DNA of 32,000 nucleotides from Delftia acidovorans NBRC 14950 (GTDB taxonomy: Bacteria > Pseudomonadota > Gammaproteobacteria > Burkholderiales > Burkholderiaceae_C), in NCBI RefSeq assembly GCF_001598795.1, contig NZ_BCZP01000006.1, positions 90,001 to 122,000 on the forward strand. Reading direction: 5' to 3'. Below, piece after piece: positions 15,574-32,000 of this stretch. Position numbers and translations under genes: made by a program. Numbering within the stretch: the first letter of the stretch is position 1; each line of letters starts with the position of its first letter. Below the pieces are notes generated by a model that did not search any database, was not told the origin of the DNA, and saw nothing but the letters and a program-made list of their open reading frames with translations.

Positions 15574-17583
15574 ATGGCTGCCTCCCCCAAAGCGATCTAC
15601 TGGTTCAGTGCCCTTCTTTTGCTGGCCATATTGGGCGTTTACCTGCCCGGCCTGAACAACGGGCTGTTGTTCGACGATATGCGCCTGACGGATGGAACGA
15701 TCTTCGGCAACTACGGCAGCCTGCTGGATTTCAAACAGCGCACGCTGTCGTATGGCAGCTTCGTCTGGATCGAACAGCTCTTTGGAGCCGGCTGGTGGAA
15801 GCAGCGCGTCTTCAATATCGCCTTGCATCTCGCAACCGTAGCGGCTTTGTATGCACTGTTCAAGGCCCTGCTGACGCAGACGCGCTTTCCGCATGACATC
15901 GAAGAGCAGCCCCATTTCCTCGCATCGCGCGATGCAGCCCTGCAGTTGGGCCTGATCCTTTTTGCACTGAACCCCGTCGCGGTCTACGCCGTTGGATACC
16001 TGGTGCAGCGCTCCATCGTCATGGCAACGCTGTTCGCGGTGCTGGCATGCTGGGCCTTTGTGCGCGGGCTTCAGAGCGGGCGCGCCCTGTGGCATGTCGC
16101 GGCATTCATCTGCTATGTGCTTGCCGTACTGTCCAAGGAGCATGCTTTTCTGACAGTCGCCATGGTGGTGCCGCTCTATATCTTTGTGCGGCGCCCCGGC
16201 CTGAAGGCTGCCATGGTCATTGTGGGAATGGCCTTGCTGCTGCTGGCCGTTGCCTCGGCGGCAGTCTTTCATTTCTTCGGCAGTCTGGTGGGCCAGATTT
16301 TCGATGAGCAATCCCAGGGCTATGCAAGGCAATTGGAAGCCCTTCAACCCGGCATCACCTCTCGGATCTATCCCCTGAGCATCCTCAACGAGGCAGCCCT
16401 TTTCTTTGCCTATGGCTTTCTGTGGATCGTTCCCTATGCGGGCTGGATGTCCATCGATCTGCGACCGGCATTTCCTCTCGGCTTCGGCTCGATCTGGCAC
16501 CTAGCCGGCGCGCTCGGTTACCTGGCCCTGCTGTCCTGCTCGATCTGGGCCGTGCTCAGGCGTCCCGGTGTCATTGGCCTGGTCGCGCTCTGCCTCCTGT
16601 TTCCCCTGCTCTGGTACGCGACCGAATTCGCCACGGTCTGGCTGCAGGACCCCTTCGTTCTGTATCGCAGCTATCTGTGGGCTGTGGCCATCCCGGGATT
16701 GGCGGCCATTGCGCTGACGGGGGTCAAACCACGCACCATCTACATCGTCGGCATCGTCATCGGCGTGGTGTTCGGAGCCCTCGCTTTCGAACGCGTGCTC
16801 TCTCTTCAGGATGTAGGCACATCCTGGGCCGATGCCGCTGAAAAAATCGACAAAAAAGCCCCCGCCAATGCCGTGGGACGTGGCCGTGCCTTCCTGAACG
16901 TAGGAACAGCACACGCAGACAAGGGCATGCTCGACCAGGCGCTGCAGGACTTCGCCACGGCCAACGCACTTGGAGACCTGGGAGGCAATGCGCTGTTCAA
17001 CATGGGTGCTGTGCTTTCTCAGCAGAAGAAATTCTCCGAAGCCCTGAATGCCTTCTGGGCAGCACAATCAAAGGGCTTCAACGGCCAAGCTCTGCATTAC
17101 CAAAAAGCCGAGGCGCTTTTGGCCCTGGGCCAACCTCGCGAAGCACTCCAGGAATACACCAAAGCACTCTCAGCGCCTGCGGAAGATACTGCCAGCGCCA
17201 AGCAGATGGAGCAAACCCTTCGCCTCAAGCGTGCAGAAACAGCCATCGGGGCTCAGCAATATCAGGTAGCCCTTGATGACTTTCAAATTCTGCTGAAAAC
17301 CTCGCCTAGCGCCCCTCGATTGATTGTCGGGATGGGTCTGGCCTTGATTGGCAAGGGCGAAAGTGCCCAAGCCAAGGAATTACTCAAACCGCTGGTAGCC
17401 CGCGACCCTAGCGCACCTGCGCTGTACGGTCTTGCCATGGCCTATCACGGCCAAGGAAATCTGACTGAAGCCCTGAAATACTTGGACCAGGCCATTCGGC
17501 GGGAGCCTCAAAATCCGCAATATAGGCAAATCCGTAACCAGTTGAGCCAACAGTCGGCGGCCAAACCCCAGCCAGCGAAGTAA
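15574..17583 (+). CDS. Polytopic membrane protein with C-terminal TPR repeats; TMTC/PMT-like GT-C glycosyltransferase candidate
   Basis: 669 aa. The N-terminal ~400 aa are multi-TM, with an acidic first-loop motif (GLLFDDMRL). NIALHLATVAALYALF, LILFALNPVAVYAVGYLVQR and LAVLSKEHAF resemble TMTC/DUF1736-type proteins. The C-terminal ~230 aa carry TPR-like repeats (e.g. YGLAMAYHGQGNLTEALKYLDQAIRREPQN). Confidence 0.7.
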   Translation: MAASPKAIYWFSALLLLAILGVYLPGLNNGLLFDDMRLTDGTIFGNYGSLLDFKQRTLSYGSFVWIEQLFGAGWWKQRVFNIALHLATVAALYALFKALLTQTRFPHDIEEQPHFLASRDAALQLGLILFALNPVAVYAVGYLVQRSIVMATLFAVLACWAFVRGLQSGRALWHVAAFICYVLAVLSKEHAFLTVAMVVPLYIFVRRPGLKAAMVIVGMALLLLAVASAAVFHFFGSLVGQIFDEQSQGYARQLEALQPGITSRIYPLSILNEAALFFAYGFLWIVPYAGWMSIDLRPAFPLGFGSIWHLAGALGYLALLSCSIWAVLRRPGVIGLVALCLLFPLLWYATEFATVWLQDPFVLYRSYLWAVAIPGLAAIALTGVKPRTIYIVGIVIGVVFGALAFERVLSLQDVGTSWADAAEKIDKKAPANAVGRGRAFLNVGTAHADKGMLDQALQDFATANALGDLGGNALFNMGAVLSQQKKFSEALNAFWAAQSKGFNGQALHYQKAEALLALGQPREALQEYTKALSAPAEDTASAKQMEQTLRLKRAETAIGAQQYQVALDDFQILLKTSPSAPRLIVGMGLALIGKGESAQAKELLKPLVARDPSAPALYGLAMAYHGQGNLTEALKYLDQAIRREPQNPQYRQIRNQLSQQSAAKPQPAK

Positions 17584-17594
17584 GGCCCTCTGCA

Positions 17595-19451
17595 ATGGCC
17601 CTGCGCATACTTCACGTCGGCAAATTCTTCCCCCCCTACCGAGGCGGCATGGAAGTCTTTCTGGCCGACCTGATACACGAGCAACGACGCCAGGGTGTCG
17701 ATGCCCATGCCCTGGTCCATGGTGATCCGGAGCCGGACGATCCACCGTGGCTGGAGCGCGTGCCCGTGCAGTTCAACCTTGTCTATGCCCCCATGGCCAT
17801 GGGATTCCGGCGCGCACTGGGCCGCGCCATCGAACGCATTCAGCCCGACGTACTGCACCTGCATCTGCCCAACAACTCGGCGCTTTGGGCACTGACCCTG
17901 CCCATCGCGCGGCGCGTGCCCTGGGTCATCCACTGGCACTCCGATGTGGTGGTGTCCAACATCAAGTGGTCCGTGGCATTGGCCTACATGCTGTACCGGC
18001 CGTTCGAGCAGGCCTTGCTGGAACGCGCCCAACAGGTATTCGCAACGTCGCCACCCTATCTTGAGGCCAGCAATGCCCTGCGTACCTGGCGCAGCAAATG
18101 CGAGATCGTTCCGCTGGGCCTGAACCTCGAAACCATTCCTGCACCAGCATCGCTGCAGCACAGCCAAGGCTGGCGCCCCGACACCCGGCTGCGCCTGTTG
18201 TCCATCGGGCGGCTGACCTACTACAAAGGCTTCGAGACCTTGATCCGAGCCGTCTCGGCCATGCCAGGCGTGGAGTTGCTGATCGCGGGAGAAGGCGAGC
18301 TGCGAGCATCCCTGGAAGAGCTGATACGCCAATGCACTCCTGAGGGCAGACAGGCCAGTGTGCGACTGGTGGGCTCGGTGTCGGACGAGGAAAAACATGC
18401 CTTGTTTGCAGAGTGCGACATCTTCTGTCTTGCCTCGCGCGAACGTACGGAAGCTTTCGGCATCGTATTGCTGGAGGCCATGCTGCACGGTAAGCCCTGC
18501 CTGGTAACCGACCTCCCCGGTTCGGGCATGCCCTGGGTAGTCGCCCACTCGCACGCCGGCCTGCATGTACCGTTTGAAGACATTGATGCCTGGCGCAGCA
18601 GCATTGCTCGCCTGCAGCACGACACGGCCCTCAGGCAGCGGCTGGGCCAATCGGGCTACAAGGCCTTGCATCGGTTTTTCAGCATCGGCCCCTGTGAACG
18701 AAGCGTGGCGCGCCACTACCGCAGCCTGGCCCCCGACACCCGCCCGGCAAGAGCACGCCAGGACTTGCTGGTTGTCATTTCCACGCGCAACAACGAAGCC
18801 GAGATTGCGCACCTGATACGTCGCGTGCATGCATTGGTCGAGGCCAGCGTCCTCGTCGTGGACAACCGCAGCACAGATGCCACCTGCCATGAAGCCGAGC
18901 AATGCGGCGCCAGGGTACTGCGCCCCTTGCTGGCAATGACCAATTGGGGCAGCCTGCAGACCGGCCTGCGCTACGCGCAGACCCATGGGTTCCAGACCGT
19001 CGTCACCATCGACGCTGAAGGTCGCTATGAGGTGGAGGAGCTGCCCACGCTGCTGGCACAACGCCAGCAGGCGGACATGGTCGTAGCCTACTTCGCCGAG
19101 CGCAACAGCCTGGTGCGCCGCATTGCGTGGCAATGGTTCCGCTGGTTGACAGGTTTTGGCCTGCGGGATTTCGTTTCTGGATTCAGGCTGTACAACCGGC
19201 AGGCGCTGGAGGTTGCGAGCTCCACCGAAGCGACCATGCTCGACTATCAGGATATCGGGACGTTGCTGCTGATGCGCCGCCAGGGTCTGCGCATTGCGGA
19301 GGTGGCACTGCCTTTGCATACGGCAAAGGTCAACAGATCGAAGATCTTCCGGTCATGGGGCAACGCGGTCCGCTACGTGGCCGTGTCTTCGCTGTTGAGC
19401 ATTGCCCATGGCAAGACCCGAAGCGGCTCGGCTTGCCCTCCCTCGATTTAG
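17595..19451 (+). CDS. Bifunctional glycosyltransferase: N-terminal GT4 (GT-B) fused to a C-terminal GT2 (Dpm1/GtrB-like catalytic domain without TM segments)
   Basis: 618 aa. The GT4 part is ~aa 1-375, with ILHVGKFFPPYRGGME and the EX7E motif TEAFGIVLLEAM. The GT2 part is ~aa 390-585, with LLVVISTRNNE, VVDNRSTD and a DXD-like TIDAEG. The start is 11 nt after the stop of the upstream GT-C gene. Confidence 0.8.
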   Translation: MALRILHVGKFFPPYRGGMEVFLADLIHEQRRQGVDAHALVHGDPEPDDPPWLERVPVQFNLVYAPMAMGFRRALGRAIERIQPDVLHLHLPNNSALWALTLPIARRVPWVIHWHSDVVVSNIKWSVALAYMLYRPFEQALLERAQQVFATSPPYLEASNALRTWRSKCEIVPLGLNLETIPAPASLQHSQGWRPDTRLRLLSIGRLTYYKGFETLIRAVSAMPGVELLIAGEGELRASLEELIRQCTPEGRQASVRLVGSVSDEEKHALFAECDIFCLASRERTEAFGIVLLEAMLHGKPCLVTDLPGSGMPWVVAHSHAGLHVPFEDIDAWRSSIARLQHDTALRQRLGQSGYKALHRFFSIGPCERSVARHYRSLAPDTRPARARQDLLVVISTRNNEAEIAHLIRRVHALVEASVLVVDNRSTDATCHEAEQCGARVLRPLLAMTNWGSLQTGLRYAQTHGFQTVVTIDAEGRYEVEELPTLLAQRQQADMVVAYFAERNSLVRRIAWQWFRWLTGFGLRDFVSGFRLYNRQALEVASSTEATMLDYQDIGTLLLMRRQGLRIAEVALPLHTAKVNRSKIFRSWGNAVRYVAVSSLLSIAHGKTRSGSACPPSI

Positions 19452-20596
19452 CGGCGTACTCGCGTGTACACGCCCACAGTCTGCTCCGTGCACTGATCCC
19501 AGGAAAACTGTGCGGCCCGAACCAGCCCCTTGGCCCGTGCTGAATCCTGCCACTGGGTATCGCTCAGGCAAGCCCTTAGCTGATACGCGATATCTTCCAC
19601 CTGCATCGGATCGGCCAGACGGGCTGCTCCTGCCGTAATTTCCGGCATGCAAGACGTGTTGGAGGTCAGAACCGGCACTCCGCTGGCCATCGCCTCAACC
19701 AAGGGCAGGCCAAATCCTTCATACAACGATGGATAGGCAAACAATAGCGCTCCGGCATACAGCAAGGGGAGCTGAGCTTGGTCCACAAAGCGCAGATAGT
19801 GCATCCACCCTTCGTCCTGAGCGATGACCATCTGCTGATGTATATCTTCCGAACTCCAGCCTTTCGAGCCAGCTACGACCAGGGGAAAGTTGTGCCTTAG
19901 CTCCAGCGGCAAACTGCCATAGGCCTTCAGCAGACGCCCCAGGTTCTTCCTGGGCTCGATCGTGCCCACATAGAGCGAATATCCGTGATATCGCAGCTTC
20001 CACTGCGAGAGCACATGCTCCACATCCTCCCTTGATCTGGGGTGGTACGCAGAATCGACGCCCAGACCGATCGCCGTCACGTTTTCAGGAGCCCAGTCAT
20101 AACGTTCGAGAAACTCCTGACGGACGGCTTCCGAATCGGTAATGACATGGTCCGTACGCCGCATGCTGGCGCCGAAGGCAAGATTCAGGAAATCGATCCG
20201 CGCTGGAGGATGAAACTGCGGATGCAGCACATGCGAGAGATCATGCACGGTGCTGACTGCCGCACCATCGAATGGAGGAACGACGTAGTTGGGAGAGTGG
20301 TACACGGCATGCTTGTTGCCACGTAGGCGCCATCCGTACAAGGTGGGCGTTATAGCCTGATAGGCACGGACGGCCAACCGATTAGACACCAGGCGGCCGC
20401 GCAATGTCATCCTTTCCTGAGCGGGGTGCTCCAGACCAGAAAAAGGATCACTCACCCAGCGCCCCATCGAAAAATACCGCAGCCGCCTGATACGAGAATT
20501 CACAGCCAAGCGCTTGGCCAACTCATAGCTGTATCGCCCAATCCCCGTCAGAGGGGGATTGAGGATATCGGTTGCCAAAATCACATCCAAGGTCAT
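19448..20596 (-). CDS. GT4-family glycosyltransferase (WbpZ/WbdC-like mannosyl/rhamnosyl-transferase candidate)
   Basis: ORF 19448..20599 starts at a TTG; the adjacent ATG at 20596-20594 is preferred. ILNPPLTGIGRYSYELAKRL N-terminus and EX7E motif YEGFGLPLVEAMASGVP. It is the last gene of the minus-strand operon, after rmd. Confidence 0.85.
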   Translation of the reverse strand: MTLDVILATDILNPPLTGIGRYSYELAKRLAVNSRIRRLRYFSMGRWVSDPFSGLEHPAQERMTLRGRLVSNRLAVRAYQAITPTLYGWRLRGNKHAVYHSPNYVVPPFDGAAVSTVHDLSHVLHPQFHPPARIDFLNLAFGASMRRTDHVITDSEAVRQEFLERYDWAPENVTAIGLGVDSAYHPRSREDVEHVLSQWKLRYHGYSLYVGTIEPRKNLGRLLKAYGSLPLELRHNFPLVVAGSKGWSSEDIHQQMVIAQDEGWMHYLRFVDQAQLPLLYAGALLFAYPSLYEGFGLPLVEAMASGVPVLTSNTSCMPEITAGAARLADPMQVEDIAYQLRACLSDTQWQDSARAKGLVRAAQFSWDQCTEQTVGVYTRVRR

Positions 20597-20615
20597 CAAC
20601 TGCTTTCACATGAAG

Positions 20616-21521
20616 TCATGCAAGCATCCATTGCAGCGTCTCATCCAAAGGCCTCAGTGACCTAGTGCCGATCAGGCTTTCCAGCAAGCTGGTATCCGCG
20701 CACAGGGTTTTTACCTCGTTCGCCCGCACGAAGGCAGGATTCACACGAACTTGCAATCCATGGCCAGTGATCCGAATGCATTGATCCAAAATATCCTGCA
20801 GCGAAAAGAGTTTTTGTGAACCCACGTTGACCACATGGTTGGCTAAATTGCTTTCAGCCAACATTCGATAGGCACGTACCACGTCGCGAACATCGGAGAA
20901 ATCGCGCCAAACCTGGAGATTCCCCAGTTCGATCTGTGTTGCCCGACGGCGGAAATGGTCCACGATCTTGGGAATCAGGAAATCCCTGGACTGCCCGACT
21001 CCCGTGTAATTAAAGGGCCTGGCTATTGTGATGGGCAGCTTATCCATCCATATCCTGGCCATCATTTCCATCGCAGACTTGCTTACGGCATAGTCATTCG
21101 CCGGACACATGGGAGTAGCCTCGGTCAATTGGCCTTGCGCAGAATTGCCATAAACATTGGCACTGCTGGCAATCAACACGCTCTCCGGGACTTGCTCCTG
21201 GCTGGCAAGCGCTTGAAGCAGGTTTCGGGACCCACCCACATTGACTCGGTAGAAATCTGTCGGAGAGCCATGGCCAACAAAAGCGATGGCCGCTAGGTGA
21301 AACACGGCTTGCGGCGCAATGGCCTGCACGGCCTCTTGCAACTGGGTGTAATCCTCGAGATCGGCAACCCGATAGTTGGCCAGATCTGGCTGTTGCGTGT
21401 GGCCCAGCCCCCAGACCTCCCAGCCATGCTGCTCAAGCTCTTGCGTAAGGTAGCGTCCGGTAAAACCGGCCGCGCCGGTCACCAGGGCTCGCTTTTTTGC
21501 ACCGTTTTGCCGTTGATTCAT
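20616..21521 (-). CDS. rmd: GDP-4-keto-6-deoxy-D-mannose reductase (Rmd-like; a GDP-6-deoxy-D-talose synthase is an alternative)
   Basis: 301-aa short-chain dehydrogenase/reductase. Rossmann motif VTGAAGFTGRYL, catalytic YAVSK, and ARPFNYTGVGQ...WRDFSDVRDVVRAY, as I remember for Pseudomonas aeruginosa Rmd. It lies immediately downstream of gmd. Confidence 0.75.
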   Translation of the reverse strand: MNQRQNGAKKRALVTGAAGFTGRYLTQELEQHGWEVWGLGHTQQPDLANYRVADLEDYTQLQEAVQAIAPQAVFHLAAIAFVGHGSPTDFYRVNVGGSRNLLQALASQEQVPESVLIASSANVYGNSAQGQLTEATPMCPANDYAVSKSAMEMMARIWMDKLPITIARPFNYTGVGQSRDFLIPKIVDHFRRRATQIELGNLQVWRDFSDVRDVVRAYRMLAESNLANHVVNVGSQKLFSLQDILDQCIRITGHGLQVRVNPAFVRANEVKTLCADTSLLESLIGTRSLRPLDETLQWMLA

Positions 21522-21540
21522 AAGTTACCCACGGGGTCCG

Positions 21541-22608
<1,068 letters not shown>

Positions 22609-22708
22609 TCATCATTTAGAAAGGAACTGAAATACAACTTCACCCTGCCAGCATCAAAAGGCGAATATATTTCCAAGATTCCATCCAAAAAATCAATCAC
22701 CCTTGTTT

Positions 22709-23854
22709 TCAGAAATTATCATCAATATGTGCAATCGCATCCGACACCTTGCCGATCACCTCATCAATTTCAGCCTCAAGTCCGACCCAAAGAGGCAGCC
22801 TTACCAATCTATCTGAATACTGATCAGTTATATCCATATCTCCGTGATAGCGGCTGAAATCTCTTGCAGCCGGCGCTGAGTGGAGAGGAACATAGTGAAA
22901 AACCGAACCAATACCCTGCGATTTCAAATAGCTTATGAAAGCTGCTCTTTTATCAAGACTGGGAAGCAGGACATAATACATGTGCGCGTTATGTATACAC
23001 ATATCGGGCACAACCGGCCGTCTCAATCTTCCATTTCTCTCAAAAACCTCGAAGGCTGAATTATATCTATTCCACAACGCAATTCTACGGCTGTTGATAT
23101 CTTCCCCCGCCTCCATCTGAGCCCATAGAAACGCAGCTATCAATTCACCGGGCAAGAAACTTGAACCGAGGTCACACCAGGTGTATTTATCAACCTGTCC
23201 ACGAAAGAACTGACTACGGTTGGTTCCTTTTTCGCGAATTATTTCTGCGCGCTGCACAAGCTCAGGATCATTGATGAGCAAGGCACCGCCTTCCCCTGAG
23301 ATAATATTCTTTGTTTCGTGAAAACTGAGGCAACCCAGATGGCCTATGGAACCAAGAGGACGTCCTTTATATTTGGACATGATACCTTGAGCCGCATCCT
23401 CGATGACTATCAAGTCATGGCGCTTGGCAATCTCCATGATGGTATCCATCTCACAAGCGACTCCTGCGTAATGGACTGGAATGATGGCCTTGGTTCGAGG
23501 TGTAATAGCTGCCTCGATGAGGTTTTCATCAATGTTCAGGGTATCCGGCCTTATATCGACAAAAACGGGAACTGCTCCTCTTAACACAAAAGCATTTGCC
23601 GTGGAAACAAATGTATAGGATGGCATGATCACCTCATCGCCCGGTCCTAAATTTGCCAGCAGGGCAGCCATTTCCAAGGCAGCCGTGCAGGAATGTGTTA
23701 GAAGCGCCTTTTTACAGCCGATACTAGATTCCAGCCAACGAGAGCACGATTTTGTAAAAAATCCATCACCGGCCAAATGGCCGTTTGAATGTGCCTGAGC
23801 AATATACCAAAGCTCTTTGCCAGTCATGTATGGCTTATTAAATGGAATATTCAT
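22709..23854 (-). CDS. DegT/DnrJ/EryC1-family PLP aminotransferase, WecE-like (NDP-4-keto-6-deoxyhexose 4-aminotransferase)
   Basis: 381 aa. Long stretches match my memory of E. coli WecE: VIMPSYTFVSTANAFVLRGA, PVHYAGVACEMDTIM, IEDAAQG, SFHETKN (PLP lysine) and EIIREKGTNRSQFFRGQVDKYTW. This is not a computed alignment. Confidence 0.88.
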   Translation of the reverse strand: MNIPFNKPYMTGKELWYIAQAHSNGHLAGDGFFTKSCSRWLESSIGCKKALLTHSCTAALEMAALLANLGPGDEVIMPSYTFVSTANAFVLRGAVPVFVDIRPDTLNIDENLIEAAITPRTKAIIPVHYAGVACEMDTIMEIAKRHDLIVIEDAAQGIMSKYKGRPLGSIGHLGCLSFHETKNIISGEGGALLINDPELVQRAEIIREKGTNRSQFFRGQVDKYTWCDLGSSFLPGELIAAFLWAQMEAGEDINSRRIALWNRYNSAFEVFERNGRLRRPVVPDMCIHNAHMYYVLLPSLDKRAAFISYLKSQGIGSVFHYVPLHSAPAARDFSRYHGDMDITDQYSDRLVRLPLWVGLEAEIDEVIGKVSDAIAHIDDNF

Positions 23855-23964
23855 TTACCACGCTCCGTAATCTAATGCATACAAGGGAAAAACTCCCTTA
23901 TCTTCAAAATTCGCAGATCCCTTGTCTATTTAGATTCTACATGGCTTTCCCGCAACTCAAAATG

Positions 23965-24342
23965 CTAGCCACGCGAAAGCACCAACACACCAGCAACAAT
24001 TAGCAGGCTTCCCAGAATTTTTGAAAGAGTGATTGCCTCATGAAAAAGAACAAATCCCATAAAAAGAATCAGAACATAGTTCAATGCGACGAACGGATAA
24101 GCATAGCTCAACTCAAATTTCGTCATTGCCATCATCCAGGAAACGCCTGCCATAAAAGTGGCCAGCATACCTGAAATTACCCAGGGGTTTATCAGAAGAT
24201 TGAATATAAATAAAAACTTCCCCTTCAATGAGTCGGGCAACTCTCCTGCCGCCGTCACCTGCCAGCGCATCACCAATTGGCTGTATACCGTAAATACCAG
24301 CATCAGGAGAATATACAAATGATTTAGCAGGGATTTATTCAT
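23965..24342 (-). CDS. Small 4-TM DMT/EamA-half protein, ArnE/ArnF-like candidate flippase for a polyprenyl-phosphate sugar
   Basis: 125 aa with four hydrophobic segments. The C-terminal ITLSKILGSLLIVAGVLVLS is typical of EamA/SMR-like helices. It sits between the acyltransferase and aminotransferase genes. Confidence 0.6.
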   Translation of the reverse strand: MNKSLLNHLYILLMLVFTVYSQLVMRWQVTAAGELPDSLKGKFLFIFNLLINPWVISGMLATFMAGVSWMMAMTKFELSYAYPFVALNYVLILFMGFVLFHEAITLSKILGSLLIVAGVLVLSRG

Positions 24343-24364
24343 CAGTATCGTTGAATATTCAAAT

Positions 24365-24946
24365 TCATTTTAGGGATGAAATATATGCGTCTTCCTTCTC
24401 AAGCAAATCCCGGCTGCGGGCCTTGATTCGCTTCGCAGGATTACCGATATATATCGACCATTCTTCAGTAGACTTGGTTACCACAGACATCGCACCAACA
24501 GCACATCCTTCAGACAAATTAACTCCAGGGAAAATGACCGACCTAGTCCCGACAATCACATGTCTGCCAAGCGACACCCTACCTCGGGCTATTTTCCTAT
24601 ATTCCATCGAAACTGTTGGATTCGTCAAATGCGCACCCGTGTAATCATCCGATTGGCAGAATATGCAAGCACCAAATGCCAGCCCGGAAAAATCTCCGAA
24701 GTTCACTCCTTCCCGACCACCAATCACAAGGCTCGAATGCGCCAGATGGACATTGTTACCAAACTCAATAGCCCCAGAAATCACGCAAAAATCATCAATA
24801 ATCACCCGATTCTTGATCGAGGTATATTTTGCATCGTATATCCTGGCAGTCCTGGCAATTTTTACATTATCCCCGACGGACAAGAATCCCATAGCCAATA
24901 CCTCAGAGCGACTGAGATATCTAGACAGATCATTACTCATGGTCAT
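24365..24946 (-). CDS. Left-handed beta-helix (hexapeptide-repeat) acyltransferase
   Basis: 193 aa. Imperfect hexapeptide repeats (IIDDFCVISGAIEFGNNVHLAHSSLVIGG..., VSLGRHVIVGTRSVIFPGVNLSEGCAVGAMSVV) and a C-terminal IYIGNPAKRIK. Its start (24946 or 24940) overlaps the 3' end of the GT2 gene. Confidence 0.8.
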   Translation of the reverse strand: MTMSNDLSRYLSRSEVLAMGFLSVGDNVKIARTARIYDAKYTSIKNRVIIDDFCVISGAIEFGNNVHLAHSSLVIGGREGVNFGDFSGLAFGACIFCQSDDYTGAHLTNPTVSMEYRKIARGRVSLGRHVIVGTRSVIFPGVNLSEGCAVGAMSVVTKSTEEWSIYIGNPAKRIKARSRDLLEKEDAYISSLK

Positions 24947-25868
24947 CTCCGAAATTAAAAATCTCTCTGATTATTGAATTAGGCCGTGCCTTCACCTCAA
25001 CAAACACTTTCGCGATGTAGATGCCGACCACACCAATGGAAGCCAATGTCAATCCACCGAGAATCCATATCGACAGAATCAGAGATGTCCACCCCGTCAG
25101 GTAGTTTCCGACAAACACCGATTCCAAAAAAACAATCAATGCGCAAATCATTGATACAAAAAATATCCCGACCCCGATGAAAAAAATGAAATGGAGTGGT
25201 TTTGCAGAGAATGAGGTTATTGCACTAATCAGTAATGACAGTCTTCGACCCAAGGTGTACGATGTCTCTCCACGGGATTTCTTTGTTACGGACAGTGCCT
25301 TCTGGCGAAACCCGGTAATCTGCATGACTCCACCAAGGAACAAGTCCTTTTCTTCATGCAAAATCAGTGCATTCACATAATCTCTGCTCATTAACCGGGC
25401 AGTCAAAATATTGCGAGGGAGCTCGATACCAGACAAACGGTTAAACCCTGCATAGAAAATGGCGCCGCCGACTTTCTCAACAAATCCGCCTTTTCTCTCT
25501 GCCTGAACTCCATACACGACATCCATACCCAAATGGCGTTTTTCGCGGTCAAATTCCAACAGCAATTCTGGAGCCTCTTCTAGATCACAGTCGATCAAAA
25601 AGACATCATCTCCCCTGGATTGCTGCAGCCCGGCCATGATGGCTTTATGGTGTCCGAAATTTCTAGAAAGATCCACGACTGTCACGCGTGGATTTTCCTT
25701 TGCTATTTCCAGAACCACATCCAATACATTGTCAGGAGATCCATCATTTATCATGATAATCTCGTAGTCATCTCCTGCAATATTTCTCACCGCGGCCAGA
25801 GCTCTTTCATAGAACTCATTAATCCACCCCGATGATTTATACAATGTTGTTACAACTGATATTTTCAT
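24933..25868 (-). CDS. GT2 polyprenyl-phosphate glycosyltransferase (ArnC/GtrB/Dpm1-like) with two C-terminal TM helices
   Basis: 311 aa. KISVVTTLYKS, INDGSPD and DXD in FLIDCDLEE. The C-terminus has two hydrophobic helices (LHFIFFIGVGIFFVSMICALIVF and LILSIWILGGLTLASIGVVGIYI), the architecture of Und-P sugar synthases. TGATG overlap with the wbqC-like gene at 25866-25870. Confidence 0.85.
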   Translation of the reverse strand: MKISVVTTLYKSSGWINEFYERALAAVRNIAGDDYEIIMINDGSPDNVLDVVLEIAKENPRVTVVDLSRNFGHHKAIMAGLQQSRGDDVFLIDCDLEEAPELLLEFDREKRHLGMDVVYGVQAERKGGFVEKVGGAIFYAGFNRLSGIELPRNILTARLMSRDYVNALILHEEKDLFLGGVMQITGFRQKALSVTKKSRGETSYTLGRRLSLLISAITSFSAKPLHFIFFIGVGIFFVSMICALIVFLESVFVGNYLTGWTSLILSIWILGGLTLASIGVVGIYIAKVFVEVKARPNSIIREIFNFGDDHE

Positions 25869-26551
25869 CAGCCAAGCCTTCTAATATATTTGGCAGAATC
25901 TTTGCCGCAATTGAACAATAGATCCAATATCGAGACCTGATGCTGAAAATCACCCCATAGCTGAGGATACTCGGGATATTCTCCGTAGCTGAACCACGTA
26001 AGGTCTAATTTGTGGTCTTGAAAAATAGATTCTTCAATATAGCTCTTCGCAGACGGGCCGGAAACATATTCACTGCCGGAGGCCTGAATGCATATATTAG
26101 CAAGCCGCTCTACCCGATCGCCTACCAATTCATACTGAGAAGAGTCTGACAACTTTGTACCAATTCCAATAAAATCACAAATCTCACGAATGAATTTTTG
26201 ATTCATCTGGGACAGATTCTCATATTTTGAATCGAGATACAGAGGCTCCAAGAATTCTGCGATAACGTCAAAATTCTTCGCACGACGATAGTTCGATGAC
26301 AATGTTTTCCAGTGCTTTTTTTGCCAAGCATCATCTATCGTGACATCACATATGCGACGATCCAGATGAATGCCTACGGGTACAGTCAACCAACTCAGTC
26401 CCTGAGGGGTTTTAATCTTGTTTCTATTCCTCCAGTCATTCTTGGTGTACTGGACTTGGTCGTAAAACACAAACTCATCAACCGAATCGATTAAATCGAA
26501 ATATCCCTTCCAAGGGATATAGTTGGATTGGAGAATAGCAATTTTTTTCAT
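25868..26551 (-). CDS. WbqC-like family protein (function unknown)
   Basis: 227 aa. KIAILQSNYIPWKGYFDLIDSVDEFVFYDQVQYTKNDWRNRNKIKTPQGLSWLTVPV matches my recollection of the WbqC family N-terminal signature. It is the first gene after the 367-nt gap. Confidence 0.7.
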   Translation of the reverse strand: MKKIAILQSNYIPWKGYFDLIDSVDEFVFYDQVQYTKNDWRNRNKIKTPQGLSWLTVPVGIHLDRRICDVTIDDAWQKKHWKTLSSNYRRAKNFDVIAEFLEPLYLDSKYENLSQMNQKFIREICDFIGIGTKLSDSSQYELVGDRVERLANICIQASGSEYVSGPSAKSYIEESIFQDHKLDLTWFSYGEYPEYPQLWGDFQHQVSILDLLFNCGKDSAKYIRRLG

Positions 26552-26626
26552 TCTACAAGAATCCTATACCAATCATTTTTTTATTCTTCGATAATATTAA
26601 GCAGAGTTTCTGCAAGCCCAGGACAT

Positions 26627-26659
26627 TTCGACACGTGTTATGACGCTTCGACAATTGTC
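26627..26659. promoter_or_regulatory. Two palindromes (ACACGTGT and GACAATTGTC), each preceded by TTCGACA and 20 bp apart; candidate regulator-binding sites
   Basis: TTCGACA at 26627-26633 and at 26647-26653. ACACGTGT at 26631-26638 and GACAATTGTC at 26650-26659. On the transcribed (minus) strand the second palindrome contains TTGACA (26661-26656), but I found no convincing -10 element. Confidence 0.25.
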
Positions 26660-26918
26660 AAAATACATCTTATTCATGCGTGAAACCGGGGAGCGTTTAA
26701 CAAACAGATGTATCTGAGCTCATCATATTTCCTAGCGCGTCTCTTTCTCTTTCGTACTAATTGTAAAACTTTTTTCTTCAAATATTCTAATATCAGCCAC
26801 TAATTCTATGTCATTGTCACTGCACTAATGAAATGACCATGACTAACGCAGGCAGTACATCAAATTACTCAACCATCCCCCACCAAATTTAGGACAATCT
26901 TCCAGTTAGAATAATCCT

Positions 26919-27422
26919 TCATTGAGTATAGTAAATCTTGTGAAATCTAAATCCTAAATCTCTAGAATCACCCGGAACACTCGCTGTTACAGGCAGATTA
27001 ATTTGAGCACAAAGTATCCGTTTATTTCCCTGCCCAATACTCACGGGCATAGCCAAGGTACATGCGGCCTTCTCACAGATCCTGTCTACGGATTGCGTGC
27101 CATTTTTCAGAGAAATAGGTTGATTCACCAATCCATCAATCAGAGTTACAACAAGCGAAACTTCTGCGTGCTGAGTTGTGTTGTTGACTTTTGGATACAC
27201 AAAGCAAATTTTCGGATCCCGCTTTTCTGACCATCGATATCCTTCTTCTGTGCCAGAGAATCCATGGAATTTTATTCTCTTATCTTCATTCCGCCAGTCT
27301 ACAGACTCCTCGGACTGAAGAGGTGTTGTCATGCTCAGAAAATAATCATCCTGCGTTTTTCTGCCAAAAAGAACAAGGACAATCCAGATGAGAACAAGTC
27401 CTAACGAAAAAAACAATCTCAT
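26919..27422 (-). CDS. Hypothetical membrane-anchored protein with a predicted periplasmic domain (167 aa)
   Basis: ORF 26919..27431 starts at a TTG. The ATG at 27422-27420 forms an ATGA overlap with the stop of the upstream GT-C gene. It has one N-terminal TM helix (LFFSLGLVLIWIVLVLFG). A ~140-aa soluble part follows, with GFSGTEEGYRWSE...DSRDLGFRFHKIYY. Confidence 0.6.
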   Translation of the reverse strand: MRLFFSLGLVLIWIVLVLFGRKTQDDYFLSMTTPLQSEESVDWRNEDKRIKFHGFSGTEEGYRWSEKRDPKICFVYPKVNNTTQHAEVSLVVTLIDGLVNQPISLKNGTQSVDRICEKAACTLAMPVSIGQGNKRILCAQINLPVTASVPGDSRDLGFRFHKIYYTQ

Positions 27423-28648
27423 GATATCCAAACGCCGTTCAATTGAGCTATCCCATATATAGTAAAAAGATACAGCCCAGCGAAAAATATCATTAGCATA
27501 AGAAATGCACCAAGCATTGCGACGAACCTTCTATATACGGATCTAGAGCTTTTCTCACAACCAATAATCCAATTGACAAATTCGCCCAGAATAATTGGGA
27601 AAACAATTATATAAGGATTCAAAAATACGGTATGTCGACCAAAATTAAAAACAGATCCTGTAATCAGACCAAATACCGTCATAAGTAGATAAAAGCAAAA
27701 TATCTGCCACATTCCCTTTTTAAGGAAAATATGAAAACTCAAACCCAAGAGGATTACATTTAACAAAAAAACCAATGGACCCAATCTAATTGGGTCAATC
27801 CAAAATTTAATCCCAAGAATGGAGTCCGGTGTCGATATCAAATTAGATGCAGAGGAAACAATATGACTCAAAAATTGGAAGCCGCTCAAGTTATTGTTAT
27901 GTATACTCCAAGCCGAAATAGCATTCACATAGACCAGAGAATCTCCAAACTTTATATAGTAAAATAAAGTTAATAACATCGGCGCTATCAATACCACGGG
28001 AAATAGATTAATCAGCCGTACGATAGAGCGCAAAGCTGTAGAGCCCCATTCCTTTTCTGTATCGTCTACGCGCTCAGACATATATATTGCGGCACAAAGC
28101 AAAGGAATGAGGAGGATTGCGTGAGGCCTGGTAATCAATCCCAGTGACAAGATAGTGGACGCTATCAAAAACTTTTCTTTCCCAATAAAATAAACAAATG
28201 CAGCCAAAATTGGAAAAAATAGCGCCTCCGAATATCCATTGAAATAATAGATAGCATAAGGATTGAATCCCAGAAGCAAAACCGCCATCAATGAGCACCG
28301 GGGACCTATTCTTTCCACTAGATATCTAAACAGAAATATACCACCCGCTAAAAATGCAAGCGCAGATGCCAAAAACTGGGAAGCAACATAACTCAATCCC
28401 AAAGTTTTTTTCAAAAGTGAAATAAGAATCGGATATCCAGGTAAAAAAGCCAAATTGCTTTGCTTATCAATGTTCCCATCAAATTGATACCCAAGTTCTG
28501 CAATTCCTCTGTACCAGCCACCATCCCATTTAAAAGGCATCAGGCCCGTGCTAATCCACAATATAGAAAAGTAAAAAATGGGAAGGCATAGAACTACAGC
28601 CAGCAATTCATAATAGCCATCGCCTCTCTTATCAGGAGAGCTTTTCAT
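27419..28648 (-). CDS. Polytopic GT-C membrane glycosyltransferase candidate, PIG-V/Gpi18 (GT76)-like
   Basis: 409 aa with roughly 10 or more hydrophobic segments. The first-loop motif WDGGWYRGIAELGY...LAFLPGYP parallels the PIG-V signature as I remember it (WDAEHFLxIAEHGY...AFFPGFP). ATGA overlaps at both ends (28645-28648 and 27419-27422). Confidence 0.65.
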   Translation of the reverse strand: MKSSPDKRGDGYYELLAVVLCLPIFYFSILWISTGLMPFKWDGGWYRGIAELGYQFDGNIDKQSNLAFLPGYPILISLLKKTLGLSYVASQFLASALAFLAGGIFLFRYLVERIGPRCSLMAVLLLGFNPYAIYYFNGYSEALFFPILAAFVYFIGKEKFLIASTILSLGLITRPHAILLIPLLCAAIYMSERVDDTEKEWGSTALRSIVRLINLFPVVLIAPMLLTLFYYIKFGDSLVYVNAISAWSIHNNNLSGFQFLSHIVSSASNLISTPDSILGIKFWIDPIRLGPLVFLLNVILLGLSFHIFLKKGMWQIFCFYLLMTVFGLITGSVFNFGRHTVFLNPYIIVFPIILGEFVNWIIGCEKSSRSVYRRFVAMLGAFLMLMIFFAGLYLFTIYGIAQLNGVWIS

Positions 28649-31600
28649 AGTGAAGCTCGATTCTGCTCGTTATCACTTCGAAGGAGAATACCAAGCATTT
28701 TTTCTGAGCACTCCTTCCATGTCATCCAAGACATATTGCTCGACAAAGGGTGCTTCTTCTGTTTGAAATAAGACAGCCAACTTAAAATATGATCTGCAAG
28801 TTCTACTGGATTTCTTGCGTCAAAATAGTAAGCATTCTGACCAGCCACCTCTCTAAACACCGTAATATCTCGAGCCATGATCGGCAGTTGATTAATTGCA
28901 GCCTCAATCAAGGGTAAGCCAAATCCTTCACCGTAAGAAGCAGCAATAAGGCAGGAACAAGACTTGTAGACATGTCCCAAATACTCATCGCTGATCCCAT
29001 TCAGCCAGAATAAATGCTTGCCATACTCTCTATGACTGACAATTCTTTCAACTAATTTATCCACCAACCATCCTTGTTTACCAACAAGCACCAGGCTGAG
29101 TTCTTCTCCGTTTTCCCACAGTTTTTCAAACGCCGATAATACCTGTTCATGGCCTTTACGAGGCTCTAGCGTTCCGACCATCAAAAAGCTGGGCTGAGAT
29201 TTCAGTTTCTGGAGTATTCCTTCAGAGTCCGAAGGCAATCCATATGTAGGAATGGAACTCTCCACATCTGCCCCAAGATGGGACCATTCGATCTCGAACG
29301 GCCGCCCACTGGAAATTTTATTCTCTATACGCCAAGATTCCAGATCGTTGGCCACGGATTTAGAGATACATATAGCGCCATCGCACTCATTGACAACTTC
29401 CAGCCAGCTTTGAAGCAACTTATCTCCATCGGGGATAAAGCAATGGGGAAACTGAAGCAACAATAAATCGTATACGACGAACTTGACATTTACGCCAGCT
29501 CTGCGCATCATTTGGAAATATTCTCGTTGCTTTGGCACAATGACCGGCTGCAAATCAAGTCCCAAGAAATAGTCCCCGGCTCGATAGCTGAGCGGTTCAT
29601 CCTCAAGCATTGAGCGAGGACAATTCAAAAATTCCAGTGTGAAATTACGAGCATACCGGTAACCAAGACCATTTTCAGACGCATATACTGGCTCGACTCT
29701 ATATCCAGGAAGAGGAAGCTTCAGCCACTCCTGAAGAATTGAGCGCACCACTCTCTGAATACCGCTACGTGAGTCACGCTGAATCAACTCAGAAATATCT
29801 ACCAGTATTTGTGTCTGGTATATTCTTGGAACGATCGAGGCATCGATCGATGAAGCTATATTCCTTAAACTCGTGTCATCCAAGATTGGATTAGCTATAG
29901 ATGCCATTCTATCTATTAGTGACTTGATGGAAGTGAGCCTCTCCGACTGAAAGTCCTCTATTGCCTCGAAATAACTAGCAGCACAGCTAGCCGGATCATG
30001 CTGCGTTTTGACGATTTCCCGCGCACGAGTCCCTAAGTCACGGCGATAAGATTCATCCTTACAAAGCATCATTAATGCTTCAACTAGCTGCGAGTCTTCA
30101 AATTCATCTTTCAACTTGAAGACCCCATCATCAGGTAGATCGCCCATGCTACCATTAGCATTGACAATGGTAGCCAACCCATAATTCATGCAATCAAGTA
30201 CAGCAGCGGACGTTTCTCCTCGAGATAAAGTGCGGAGCTGAACACCGATATCCGCAGCTTCCAGATATTTTTGGAATTCTCCAGAATTCAGCCAACCTGT
30301 AATCTTGATACGATCACCCAGCCCACTCTCAGCAATCAATCTTTCTAGAGATGCACCGTACTCGCCATTGTCATTTTCTCCGACAAATATTAGTGTGTAA
30401 CTCGGGTCGTTTGCCAAAGACGATTGAAGCCACGCATTAAGTAGCCGATGATTGAGCTTGGTCCTACCTAGTAACCCAAAGCTGCAAACTATGCAACTTC
30501 TTCCGCTCAATCCGAGAGCTTTTCTAGCGGAAAGGCGACTATTTACATCTAGCGTTCGTTGAGAGCGCAGCAAGGGAATAATTTTCCAGTGGTCCCCCGA
30601 ATTTTTTCCGTACCAATGCCTAGCCAACTCACGTGAAAATTCAGAGTGAACAATGATTCCCTGGGCAAGATCCAAGACGGAGTAGTTGCATGGATATTCC
30701 CAAATGGCATCGGACGTATCTTCTGCATGTATTCTCCGAGATATTGCATTATATCCGTGACTTGAATACAGAGATTTCGTCCAGATCCCAGGGGAGACTC
30801 CAATGTGCTCCATATGCGCAACTATTCCAGACAGGAAGAAATCGTGCAGAACAACGACACCAGGAATCATCCGCAACAAGCCAAACATGTGCTCATGGTA
30901 ATGAGAATTACCAAAATGATAAATTACCCGCTCGTAATTATCAGAATGATCCATAAACCATTGAACACTGCGTTTCCTGCAGTTACCTACTATCCATTCA
31001 TCGGCAATTGAATCTTGCACGACAATTACTTCAATCTCGTAGTATCGAGCCAGCTCTGGCAACAATTCGGCGCTATAGTCAGAAATTCCACTACGCTCGG
31101 GGGGCAAAGGTGATATATACGCAAGCAATGGCTTCTTGAATGGAATTTTCTTCTTCTGCCCTTCTTCACCTCCGAGCCAACCTTCGATTGCAGAAATGGT
31201 TAGCTTTGCACTTCTTTCCCAACTGAAGATTTTCGATTGCTCTACGCCATGTAACTCAAGTGATGTCTTGAACTCTGAATTCGAAAGCACATGCTGTATT
31301 TTTTTGGCAATGGATTCATCATTTTTAGGATCAAACAATGCATCAGATCGCCCAATCACCTCTGGCAAACTTGAGCAGTTAGATCCAATAACAGCACGGC
31401 CACAAGCCATGGCCTCCAATGCGGGCAAACCGAATCCTTCGTGCCAGGATGGAAATACGAATATCTTGCATAAATTGTAGAGTGCAAGCAAATCCTCATC
31501 CGAGACAAAGCCCGTTAGGATCAAATCCTTCTCATCGATGCCATGCTCTTTTGCCAACTCGACAAGACGCCAACGGTCAACATCTCGAATAGAGCAAACG

Positions 31601-32000
31601 ATGGCAAGCTGATGGTCTTTGCGAGTCTGAAGAGGTAGCCGAGCATAGGCTCGGATCAGACCTTCAATATTTTTCCGATAATCGATCCCACCGCCATACA
31701 TGATGAACGGTTTGGACAACCCATATCTTTCTCTTACGTTCCTTTCTGTTTCCTCATCTATATTTTTTTTTCTGAACTCTGAATCAATCCCCGCCCAGAC
31801 GGTGACGACGTCCGCCGATGAAAAACCAGCAAGCTCAATCGCCTCAGATTTTGTTGAATTGGAGTTGCATATTAGATAATCTGCACGTTTTAAATCATCT
31901 ATTTTCCCCAGATACCAAGCCCTCATTGAGGGATTTGCCAGATAATGATCCGCATATATAAGTGGAATTAAGTCGTGCAAAAAAACCACTGTCTTATAAG
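28645..32000 (-). CDS. Multi-module GT4 glycosyltransferase (at least three GT-B modules; WbdA/WxcA-like polymerising enzyme candidate); 5' end beyond the right window edge
   Basis: The track ORF begins at a GTG (31989), but the frame stays open to the window end (..YKT VVFLHDLIPL), so the N-terminus is missing. Module 1 runs to ~aa 275 (HEGFGLPALEAM). Module 2 is ~aa 287-680 (GETSAAVLDCM, a degenerate EX7E). Module 3 is ~aa 727-1100 (GEGFGLPLIEAA). Confidence 0.85.
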   Translation of the reverse strand, partial: YKTVVFLHDLIPLIYADHYLANPSMRAWYLGKIDDLKRADYLICNSNSTKSEAIELAGFSSADVVTVWAGIDSEFRKKNIDEETERNVRERYGLSKPFIMYGGGIDYRKNIEGLIRAYARLPLQTRKDHQLAIVCSIRDVDRWRLVELAKEHGIDEKDLILTGFVSDEDLLALYNLCKIFVFPSWHEGFGLPALEAMACGRAVIGSNCSSLPEVIGRSDALFDPKNDESIAKKIQHVLSNSEFKTSLELHGVEQSKIFSWERSAKLTISAIEGWLGGEEGQKKKIPFKKPLLAYISPLPPERSGISDYSAELLPELARYYEIEVIVVQDSIADEWIVGNCRKRSVQWFMDHSDNYERVIYHFGNSHYHEHMFGLLRMIPGVVVLHDFFLSGIVAHMEHIGVSPGIWTKSLYSSHGYNAISRRIHAEDTSDAIWEYPCNYSVLDLAQGIIVHSEFSRELARHWYGKNSGDHWKIIPLLRSQRTLDVNSRLSARKALGLSGRSCIVCSFGLLGRTKLNHRLLNAWLQSSLANDPSYTLIFVGENDNGEYGASLERLIAESGLGDRIKITGWLNSGEFQKYLEAADIGVQLRTLSRGETSAAVLDCMNYGLATIVNANGSMGDLPDDGVFKLKDEFEDSQLVEALMMLCKDESYRRDLGTRAREIVKTQHDPASCAASYFEAIEDFQSERLTSIKSLIDRMASIANPILDDTSLRNIASSIDASIVPRIYQTQILVDISELIQRDSRSGIQRVVRSILQEWLKLPLPGYRVEPVYASENGLGYRYARNFTLEFLNCPRSMLEDEPLSYRAGDYFLGLDLQPVIVPKQREYFQMMRRAGVNVKFVVYDLLLLQFPHCFIPDGDKLLQSWLEVVNECDGAICISKSVANDLESWRIENKISSGRPFEIEWSHLGADVESSIPTYGLPSDSEGILQKLKSQPSFLMVGTLEPRKGHEQVLSAFEKLWENGEELSLVLVGKQGWLVDKLVERIVSHREYGKHLFWLNGISDEYLGHVYKSCSCLIAASYGEGFGLPLIEAAINQLPIMARDITVFREVAGQNAYYFDARNPVELADHILSWLSYFKQKKHPLSSNMSWMTWKECSEKMLGILLRSDNEQNRASL

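Follow-up and report, generated by a model that had tools for sequence, protein, structure and literature searches.

A probable side-branch module for an N-acylated 4-amino-6-deoxy sugar in a D-rhamnan O-antigen locus of Delftia acidovorans

Introduction

The three-component addition of side chains to O-polysaccharides that depend on ATP-binding cassette (ABC) transporters is established (PMC11127046), and in Xanthomonas mutants in wxcK and wxcN lose the N-acetylfucosamine (FucNAc) branches of the D-rhamnan O-antigen (PMC4878081). Described here is a group of seven minus-strand genes of Delftia acidovorans NBRC 14950, located at positions 22709-28648 of a 32,000-nucleotide stretch of contig NZ_BCZP01000006.1 (positions 90,001 to 122,000; this whole stretch is referred to as the window). 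In order of transcription they encode a polytopic glycosyltransferase of the GT-C type, a 167-residue anchored protein (p167), a WbqC-family protein, a family 2 glycosyltransferase (GT2), a left-handed beta-helix (LbH) acyltransferase, a small protein with four transmembrane (TM) segments and an aminotransferase. These genes probably form a module for side-branch addition in a D-rhamnan O-antigen locus of the ABC-transporter-dependent type; through them an N-acyl 4-amino-6-deoxy sugar would be made, loaded onto a lipid carrier, flipped across the membrane and attached to the rhamnan.

The closest genetic precedent is region 3 (wxcK-wxcO) of the Xanthomonas campestris wxc locus, the likeness being one of gene content as given in published accounts (PMC4878081, PMC12573098). 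Both modules stand beside gmd and rmd in an ABC-transporter D-rhamnan O-antigen locus, and the wxc region likewise holds a DegT-type aminotransferase, an acetyltransferase, a GT2 and small and large membrane proteins. However, wxc makes the 3-amino sugar 3-acetamido-3,6-dideoxygalactose (Fuc3NAc) by way of the fused isomerase/acetyltransferase WxcM, whereas the WecE- and AntD-like enzymes of Delftia point to a 4-amino sugar, and wxc region 3 has no named equivalent of p167 or WbqC.

A polyprenyl-phosphate sugar synthase and a small flippase, combined with a GT-C by which a completed glycan is decorated, also make up GtrABC, GmlABC in Klebsiella and the Citrobacter O1 ribofuranose system with GT136 (PMC11127046). 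Unlike in these systems, the Delftia donor would be a dedicated sugar, an N-acylated aminodeoxyhexose made by a nucleotide-sugar pathway of its own. The GT-C comes from a separate, uncharacterised subfamily and invariably has a small anchored protein encoded after it; the flippase of the Delftia allele is EamA/ArnF-like, as opposed to the GtrA of Gtr systems. The Arn pathway runs parallel in its steps, with a 4-aminotransferase, N-acylation (transient or permanent), a GtrB-like GT2, a flippase resembling the small multidrug resistance and drug/metabolite transporter families, and a GT-C. Even so, the module proteins score well below the Arn equivalog cut-offs (ArnB 207 against 631 bits, ArnC 119 against 529, ArnF 46 against 99) and none of them is matched by the ArnA, ArnD or ArnT models of NCBIfam; the Delftia sugar would moreover be a 6-deoxyhexose from a deoxythymidine diphosphate (dTDP) precursor, with an acceptor that is probably the O-chain and not lipid A. 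On the donor side the pairing of a WecE equivalog with an AntD homologue recalls the synthesis of Fuc4NAc for enterobacterial common antigen (WecE/WecD) and of anthrose (AntC/AntD), and in one related locus, that of Diaphorobacter, a GNAT protein stands in the WecD position. In those two pathways cytoplasmic transferases use the dTDP-sugar, whereas the Delftia sugar appears to be routed via a lipid-phosphate carrier.

The overall mechanism is therefore already established, by the Gtr and Gml systems and by the 2024 ribofuranose/GT136 system, with Arn as its amino-sugar version, and no concept is overturned here. What appears distinctive in Delftia is the 4-amino route of WecE and AntD type, the uncharacterised PIG-V-like GT-C subfamily, its constant pairing with p167, and a cassette of WbqC, GT2 and EamA proteins.

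Results

A conserved core linked to the polymerase genes

All of the open reading frames (ORFs) described in the original prediction were recovered in place on the minus strand by an ORF check. The eight genes that it had claimed for 22709-28648 are, however, seven; no credible ORF is present in the AT-rich non-coding gap of 367 bp at 26552-26918, which is the only sizeable gap of the module. Coding sequences overlap by 1-14 nt at the junctions of the GT-C gene with the triple-GT4 gene before it and the p167 gene after it, and of the GT2 gene with the WbqC and LbH genes on either side. The operon extends beyond these limits, with the triple-GT4 gene (a family 4 glycosyltransferase in three parts) upstream and gmd, an rmd-like gene and a further GT4 gene downstream.

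The core of the module recurs elsewhere. With the full core defined as an aminotransferase, one N-acylating enzyme of variable type, a GtrB-like GT2, a small putative flippase, the GT-C and p167, it was found in six independent loci (the window, L001/L002, L003, L004, L028 and L029), next to multi-domain GT4 genes; a gene containing the Wzt_C domain was present in the stretch examined for all of these except L004. The L001/L002 locus is a metagenomic allelic variant from a close relative, with flanks 91-98% identical to those in Delftia, and carries the triple GT4, GT-C (86% identical), p167 (67%), GT2 (25%), LbH (52%), GtrA, aminotransferase (78%) and gmd, with no WbqC. That of Diaphorobacter ruginosibacter (L003) runs manC, wzm, wzt, methyltransferase, GT4, GT-C (36%), p171, GT2, GNAT, GtrA and aminotransferase (78%), and one from Chromatiaceae (L004) runs triple GT4, GT-C (35%), p194, aminotransferase, GtrA, ATP-grasp protein and GT2. 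The remaining two are metagenomic: L028 has GT2, formyltransferase, GtrA, aminotransferase, GT-C and p179, and L029 has GT2, GNAT, GtrA, methyltransferase, aminotransferase, GT-C and p179. On a short contig of a Myxococcales metagenome-assembled genome (MAG; L005, 1454-3504) a GT-C relative of 28% identity ends with a stop at 2980 that is overlapped by the start of a 174-residue p167 homologue, which would carry the GT-C/p167 pair beyond the Proteobacteria.

The N-acylating enzyme is the component that changes its type: it is an ATP-grasp protein in L004 (14945-16144), a formyltransferase in L028 (5447-6319) and a GNAT protein in L003 (12682-13359) and L029 (6827-7558). This suggests a family of modules for one and the same 4-amino sugar, which they would add with varying N-substituents.

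Comparison of the window with L001 at the DNA level gives 83% identity over the triple GT4, GT-C and p167 genes (32000-26941). The similarity ends at 26941, is undetectable across the gap, WbqC and GT2, returns at 67-72% in parts of the LbH and aminotransferase genes, and stands at 91% from gmd onward. From this pattern it appears that the transferase pair belongs to the polymerase block and that the donor-synthesis genes are an exchangeable cassette. Lying where the similarity to L001 ends, the 367-bp gap probably represents a junction, of recombination or of a cassette, and it possibly carries an internal promoter. WbqC, this clade of GT2 and the EamA protein are absent from every other GT-C/p167 locus examined, and together would represent a swapped-in cassette. 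The gene set expected to travel together in the original prediction thus does so as regards the core, in six independent loci, but it is not inherited as one unit.

Enzymes for the donor sugar

The aminotransferase (22709-23854, minus strand, 381 aa) is a pyridoxal phosphate enzyme which matches PF01041 with 304 bits and is 72-82% identical to its counterparts in the six sibling loci compared. Its earlier assignment as a WecE-like 4-aminotransferase is confirmed by a score of 627 bits with the NCBIfam equivalog NF008687, well above the cut-off of 375, together with 622 bits for TIGR02379 and 516 bits against the structure of E. coli WecE (4piw); for perosamine synthases and ArnB the scores reach no more than ~160-207 bits. 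As the WecE equivalog score is so much higher than those of the perosamine synthases and ArnB, the substrate should be a dTDP-4-keto-6-deoxyhexose rather than the guanosine diphosphate (GDP)-sugar from the neighbouring Gmd. Most likely the enzyme converts dTDP-4-keto-6-deoxy-D-glucose to dTDP-4-amino-4,6-dideoxyhexose, in the form of 4-amino-4,6-dideoxy-D-galactose (D-Fuc4N). A role in making GDP-perosamine, for which the gmd neighbour had spoken, was ruled out (627 bits for WecE against ~173 for perosamine synthases).

The LbH protein (24365-24946, minus strand, 191-193 aa) matches the structures 3vbk, 3vbi and 3vbn over its full length (residues 7-192) with 160-165 bits. The last of these comes from Bacillus cereus and represents AntD, the enzyme that carries out N-acylation in the synthesis of anthrose, and the LbH acyltransferase of the original prediction is in this way identified as a full-length homologue of a proven dTDP-4-amino-4,6-dideoxyhexose N-acyltransferase. 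The match supports N-acylation of dTDP-4-amino-4,6-dideoxyhexose by LbH, possibly with an acyl group larger than acetyl. An O-acetyltransferase function was also considered, for which the NCBIfam models WbbJ, Maa and Vat gave ~40-53 bits; it is superseded by the full-length AntD match.

Lipid loading and flipping

The GT2 (24933-25868, minus strand, 311 aa) matches PF00535 with 81 bits and can be aligned over its whole length with GtrB, a polyprenyl-phosphate glycosyltransferase (5ekp, 164 bits), as well as with three structures of ArnC (93-110 bits). Among NCBIfam models the best was PgfS with 185 bits, and ArnC gave 119 bits, both below their cut-offs. Hydropathy places two TM segments at the C-terminus, at about residues 228-246 and 263-281. 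The protein is therefore of the polyprenyl-phosphate glycosyltransferase type, as had been proposed, and would make a polyprenyl-phosphate-sugar donor.

The 125-residue protein with four TM segments (23965-24342, minus strand) matches EamA with 28.9 bits, just over the cut-off of 28.2, and its best NCBIfam match is ArnF with 45.9 bits, under the cut-off of 99; the ArnE/F-like character first proposed for it is a marginal assignment. Its slot in the operon is occupied by GtrA (PF04138) in five sibling loci, and it is 47% identical to the EamA protein of a Nitrosomonas module (L030) that also contains WbqC and GT2. It is a putative flippase for an undecaprenyl-phosphate-linked sugar.

The GT-C and its small neighbour

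The polytopic protein (27419-28648, minus strand, 409 aa) was modelled from an alignment of nine sequences, with a predicted local distance difference test score (pLDDT) of 77 and a predicted template modelling score (pTM) of 0.82. In a Foldseek search, the matches to PDB structures at E≤0.02 were all GT-C enzymes: STT3, ArnT, PglB, AglB, PIG-U, ALG9/12, GPI-MT-I and Pmt4, followed by EmbB, PimE and AftA. A few transporter or receptor chains occur low in the list, with probabilities of at most 0.16. It is clear that the protein models as a GT-C, as had been predicted; a Wzy, WaaL, SEDS or transporter identity was also considered, and none of these is among the significant fold matches. The accompanying statement that it is not ArnT-like needs qualifying: no ArnT model matched, but in fold it is as ArnT-like as any GT-C, ArnT (5f15) being among the best matches.

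The loop motif quoted in the original prediction is indeed present (W41-D42..W45-Y46..IAELGY..AFLPGYP) and its core residues are invariant among homologues; W41, D42, Y46, G53, F68 and P70 vary little or not at all, and D42 is invariant in 48 sequences. By analogy with other GT-C enzymes Asp42, in the first periplasmic loop just after TM1, is a candidate for the catalytic acid.

A word-indexed search of 5.8 billion proteins returned only nine relatives of the GT-C, and an exhaustive profile search gave 19151 cluster representatives at E≤1e-3, of which about 16 are close (>239 bits). A scan of GTDB species-representative genomes with a five-sequence alignment found no close copy, the best being 36% identical. 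When 47 relatives were sampled, 22 matched PF04188 (PIG-V, CAZy family GT76; best 2.4e-10), 10 PMT_2 and 4 GT87. Relatives carry IMG labels such as 'Gpi18-like mannosyltransferase' and 'Mannosyltransferase (PIG-V)', and the family profile matches the structure of GPI-MT-I (9wno, E 5e-7). The PIG-V-like label of the original prediction is thus borne out by the motif and by the 22 relatives, but the 409-residue protein itself has no PF04188 match; a fair description of its PIG-V membership would be remote homology, by transitive links only. No mannose-specific lipid-donor synthase is found in the module, and alpha-mannosyl transfer from dolichyl phosphate mannose to a glycosylphosphatidylinositol (GPI) precursor is implausible for this protein.

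The gene for p167 (26919-27422, minus strand, with its start at the ATG at 27422) encodes a protein of 167 aa that is 100% identical to a D. acidovorans hypothetical protein. It has one N-terminal TM segment, in agreement with the anchored protein proposed earlier, and a putative periplasmic domain. The family shows the invariant motifs G[FW]S..E...RWS and D.R.LG and two invariant cysteines, which suggest a disulfide-bonded domain in the periplasm. There is a weak hint of DUF7024 (E 0.23-0.026), and no paper was found that mentions DUF7024. Homologues of 26-67% identity were detected by BLAST in five further loci, and that of L005 by hmmsearch (E 1.2e-9); in each of these loci the gene begins at or just before the stop of the GT-C gene. 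On the basis of this conserved gene pairing p167 would be a partner subunit of the GT-C.

A small partner of this kind has a parallel in eukaryotes: PIG-V/Gpi18 (with Pga1) and PIG-M/Gpi14 (with PIG-X/Pbn1) each need a small single-pass protein. To these enzymes the GT-C has a remote sequence relation, and its pairing with p167 suggests a similar arrangement, although donor and acceptor differ from those of the GPI mannosyltransferases. No similarity of p167 to any known partner was detectable, so that the likeness is one of analogy and not of homology.

In a MAG locus described below (L035, 3824-5953), a 709-residue polytopic protein without Pfam match takes the place of the GT-C and p167, and its C-terminus bears motifs resembling those of p167 (GW..E....FRW and D.R.FG). 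The idea that p167 is a detached C-terminal domain of this protein was rejected, the resemblance being confined to the motifs (hhalign probability 0.5%, E 0.12).

The WbqC protein

The product of 25868-26551 (minus strand, 227 aa) was correctly recognised as WbqC-like; it matches PF08889 with 266.7 bits, for a gathering cut-off of 21.3. The family is large, with at least 8000 scored matches in the word-indexed search; the best among the matches listed were ~60% identical, and they extend across the Proteobacteria. A DNA search for WbqC in E. coli genomes gave no match. The literature found assigns no function to the WbqC family (PF08889). The protein is soluble, with no TM segment by hydropathy, and was modelled with a pLDDT of 80.6 and pTM of 0.82. 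Besides BshC (see Discussion), Foldseek matched it to E1/ThiF-like, tyrosyl-tRNA synthetase (TyrRS) and cytidylyltransferase folds.

In five of the six contexts examined (the window, Nitrosomonas L030, Burkholderiaceae L033, Neorhizobium L034 and MAG L035) the WbqC gene lies directly upstream of a GtrB-like GT2 gene and is translationally coupled to it. These GT2s are of the same clade as that of the window and 45-55% identical, and they are accompanied in the modules by a DegT aminotransferase and by either an LbH protein or a formyltransferase, except that no aminotransferase was seen in L030. The order in L035 is WbqC, GT2, LbH, methyltransferase, aminotransferase, gmd, rmd. In the sixth context, that of Pseudomonas paeninsulae (L032), WbqC has LbH on one side and the aminotransferase on the other, and the rml/Wzx cluster that contains them has no GT2.

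The Nitrosomonas module has the order WbqC, GT2, methyltransferase, reductase, ATP-grasp, metallophosphoesterase, EamA. It is flanked by genes for proteins of 559 and 487 aa (L030, 5325-7004 and 12413-13876), which have no Pfam match and no significant similarity to the GT-C family of the window, and may be other transferases.

The surrounding locus

The triple-GT4 gene (28645-32000, minus strand) begins outside the window; in full, as seen in L026, its product has 1243 aa with three Glycos_transf_1 stretches, and is a putative rhamnan-polymerising glycosyltransferase. On the other side of the module gmd (21541-22605, minus strand; TIGR01472 468 bits, cut-off 415) adjoins an rmd-like reductase of the short-chain dehydrogenase/reductase family (20616-21521, minus strand), which matched no equivalog model; together they would supply GDP-D-rhamnose. 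A GT4 of 383 aa (19448-20599, minus strand), with counterparts of 96% identity in L001 and 56% in Diaphorobacter, is the last gene of the operon.

The complete operon can be seen in L026, which is 100% identical to window positions 16919-32000. Its order is manC, wzm, wzt with a Wzt_C carbohydrate-binding domain, a 740-aa methyltransferase, triple GT4, GT-C, p167, WbqC, GT2, LbH, EamA, aminotransferase, gmd, rmd-like reductase and GT4, with one GT4 gene and one tetratricopeptide repeat (TPR) gene on the opposite strand. By its gene content the operon appears to belong to a D-rhamnan O-antigen locus that depends on an ABC transporter and has a chain terminator, and the locus resembles those of the Pseudomonas common polysaccharide antigen and of Xanthomonas wxc. 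G+C content falls from 0.62-0.69 in the first 19 kb of the window to 0.55-0.57 over the GT4, rmd and gmd genes and to 0.38-0.46 from ~22 kb to the window end. The stepwise drop at about 19000-22700 indicates a part of the locus that was apparently horizontally acquired and varies with serotype.

On the plus strand a 618-aa GT4 (17595-19451) has a GT2-like C-terminal part (residues 390-572) that scores 50.9 bits, below the cut-off, with the NCBIfam model PpgS (polyprenyl-phospho-N-acetylgalactosaminyl synthase); this protein may be a bifunctional transferase. Next to this divergent GT4 is a 669-aa TPR protein (15574-17583, plus strand), as also in the L001 relative (87%) and in Diaphorobacter (57%). 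Further off, ~9 kb from the module and beside metK, are tandem lipid A biosynthesis acyltransferase genes (PF03279; 12307-14021 on the minus and 14158-15339 on the plus strand).

Discussion

From the family and fold identities, the operon context and the conserved co-occurrence of the genes we infer a pathway in six steps, with a substrate for each enzyme, an order for the second and third steps, a role for the flippase, a partnership for p167 and an acceptor. RmlA and RmlB, encoded elsewhere, would make dTDP-4-keto-6-deoxy-D-glucose, which the aminotransferase would aminate at C4, most likely to dTDP-D-Fuc4N; LbH would then N-acylate the amino sugar from an acyl-CoA, with an acetyl or a larger hydroxyacyl-type group. 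WbqC would act at or next to N-acylation, our best guess, and a weak assignment, being a nucleotide-dependent ligase or modifier like BshC. At the cytoplasmic face the GT2 would move the sugar onto undecaprenyl phosphate, and the 125-residue EamA/ArnF-like protein would flip the lipid-linked sugar to the periplasmic face. There the GT-C together with p167 would transfer it onto the rhamnan, after export of the latter on undecaprenyl diphosphate by Wzm/Wzt and before its ligation to lipid A-core by WaaL.

The acceptor had been left open between O-chain, core, lipid A and protein. It is very probably the D-rhamnan O-chain, which is preferred mainly because the GT-C and p167 are linked to the GT4 polymerase block. 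The same lipid-carrier pathway could also serve to modify the core or lipid A, which is where ArnT, FlmK and LgmC act, or a periplasmic or surface protein, as in Pgf and PMT-type systems. ArnT, STT3, PglB and Pmt are among the best fold matches of the GT-C, PgfS (protein glycosylation) is the best NCBIfam match of the GT2, and the two lipid A acyltransferase genes lie ~9 kb off. Nonetheless, in every full locus found the GT-C and p167 are inside or beside a polysaccharide locus of multi-GT4, Wzm/Wzt type, they are inherited with the GT4 polymerase as one DNA block, and the scores stay below all of the Arn equivalog cut-offs, which together make another acceptor highly improbable. Alternatively, two functions may be interleaved, such that the aminotransferase, LbH and WbqC feed a cytoplasmic GT4 that builds the main chain, adaptor or cap, while the GT2, flippase and GT-C add glucose (Glc) or N-acetylglucosamine (GlcNAc) as in Gtr. 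The donors of characterised GtrB-type enzymes are mostly UDP-Glc or UDP-GlcNAc, and the Pseudomonas paeninsulae locus has WbqC, LbH and aminotransferase in a Wzx-type cluster with neither GT2 nor GT-C, so that the nucleotide sugar can evidently serve cytoplasmic transferases. But in the window, L034 and L035 the GT2 gene is set among those for the aminosugar, with overlaps between them; six loci keep aminotransferase, acyltransferase, GT2, flippase and GT-C together despite changes in order and enzyme type; and ArnC shows that this GT2 clade can accept N-acylated 4-aminosugars. Little credence is therefore given to a division of the module into two functions.

Within the preferred pathway, a side branch added to the rhamnan through a lipid carrier, WbqC is the weakest link. 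BshC is the putative cysteine ligase of bacillithiol synthesis. A Streptomyces operon has genes for WbqC, a GT4, an LmbE deacetylase, a paralogue of prolyl-tRNA synthetase (ProRS) and a special tRNA (PMC10404621), a set reminiscent of bacillithiol and mycothiol synthesis with their GT4, deacetylase and ligase, which so leads to the guess of a ligase or modifier. Judged from its modelled fold and this analogy, WbqC could quite possibly, though short of probably, have the sugar's amino group as its target, as a nucleotide-dependent ligase or modifier. It could instead remove or remodel the N-acyl group on the lipid-linked sugar in the manner of ArnD, in which case the final branch would carry a free or differently substituted amine, or it could be a mere helper of the GT2. 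The translational coupling to GT2 in five of six contexts would fit this, as would the constant presence of an N-acyl or N-formyl transferase in modules with WbqC; furthermore, a search of PDB sequences gave no significant match, the only hint being a metal-dependent hydrolase at E 0.06. Against such a role, the folds found (BshC, ThiF/E1, TyrRS, cytidylyltransferase) are Rossmann-like nucleotide-binding or adenylating ones and not that of a deacetylase, the protein is soluble with no TM segment, and in L032 it is present without GT2. A deacylase or helper is rather unlikely, an estimate that concerns the WbqC step alone and does not compete with readings of the module as a whole. A more specific proposal, in which the terminal transferase would consist of two proteins, the minimal PIG-V-like GT-C and p167 as its obligate periplasmic subunit with a single TM segment, as a bacterial counterpart of Gpi18-Pga1 and PIG-M-PIG-X, and WbqC would be a BshC-like nucleotide-dependent ligase that attaches an amino acid or another acid to the 4-amino group, giving an N-(acyl-aminoacyl) branch, is conceivable but doubtful.

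Several observations weigh against the proposed pathway. Neither rmlA nor rmlB is present in the window, and no Delftia O-antigen structure was found in the literature searched. To our knowledge a dTDP-sugar donor has never been shown biochemically for a GtrB-type enzyme. The EamA/ArnF assignment of the 125-residue protein is marginal, the 409-residue protein has no Pfam or NCBIfam match even at E≤10, p167 has no significant family (Pfam/NCBIfam) or PDB match, and the best fold match of WbqC, BshC 4wbd, is weak (E 7e-3, TM-score 0.47). Finally, more distant relatives of the GT-C occur in Acidobacteriota without these neighbours, so that the association is a property of the close GT-C subfamily only.

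Serotype, phage receptor specificity and immune recognition are determined by the side branches that O-antigens carry. The Delftia locus would be a case of modular variation, in which a conserved block of rhamnan polymerase, GT-C and p167 is combined with exchangeable cassettes for differently N-acylated 4-amino sugars, the N-substituents being acetyl or another acyl, formyl, or ATP-grasp-dependent. The GT-C belongs to a subfamily without a characterised bacterial member and would be likely to found a new CAZy family, as GT136 did in 2024. Other targets for biochemistry are its conserved small putative partner p167 and the large orphan family of WbqC, which is here tied to GtrB-type lipid-sugar synthases. 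The value of the module lies in being a source of uncharacterised enzymes rather than in conceptual surprise.

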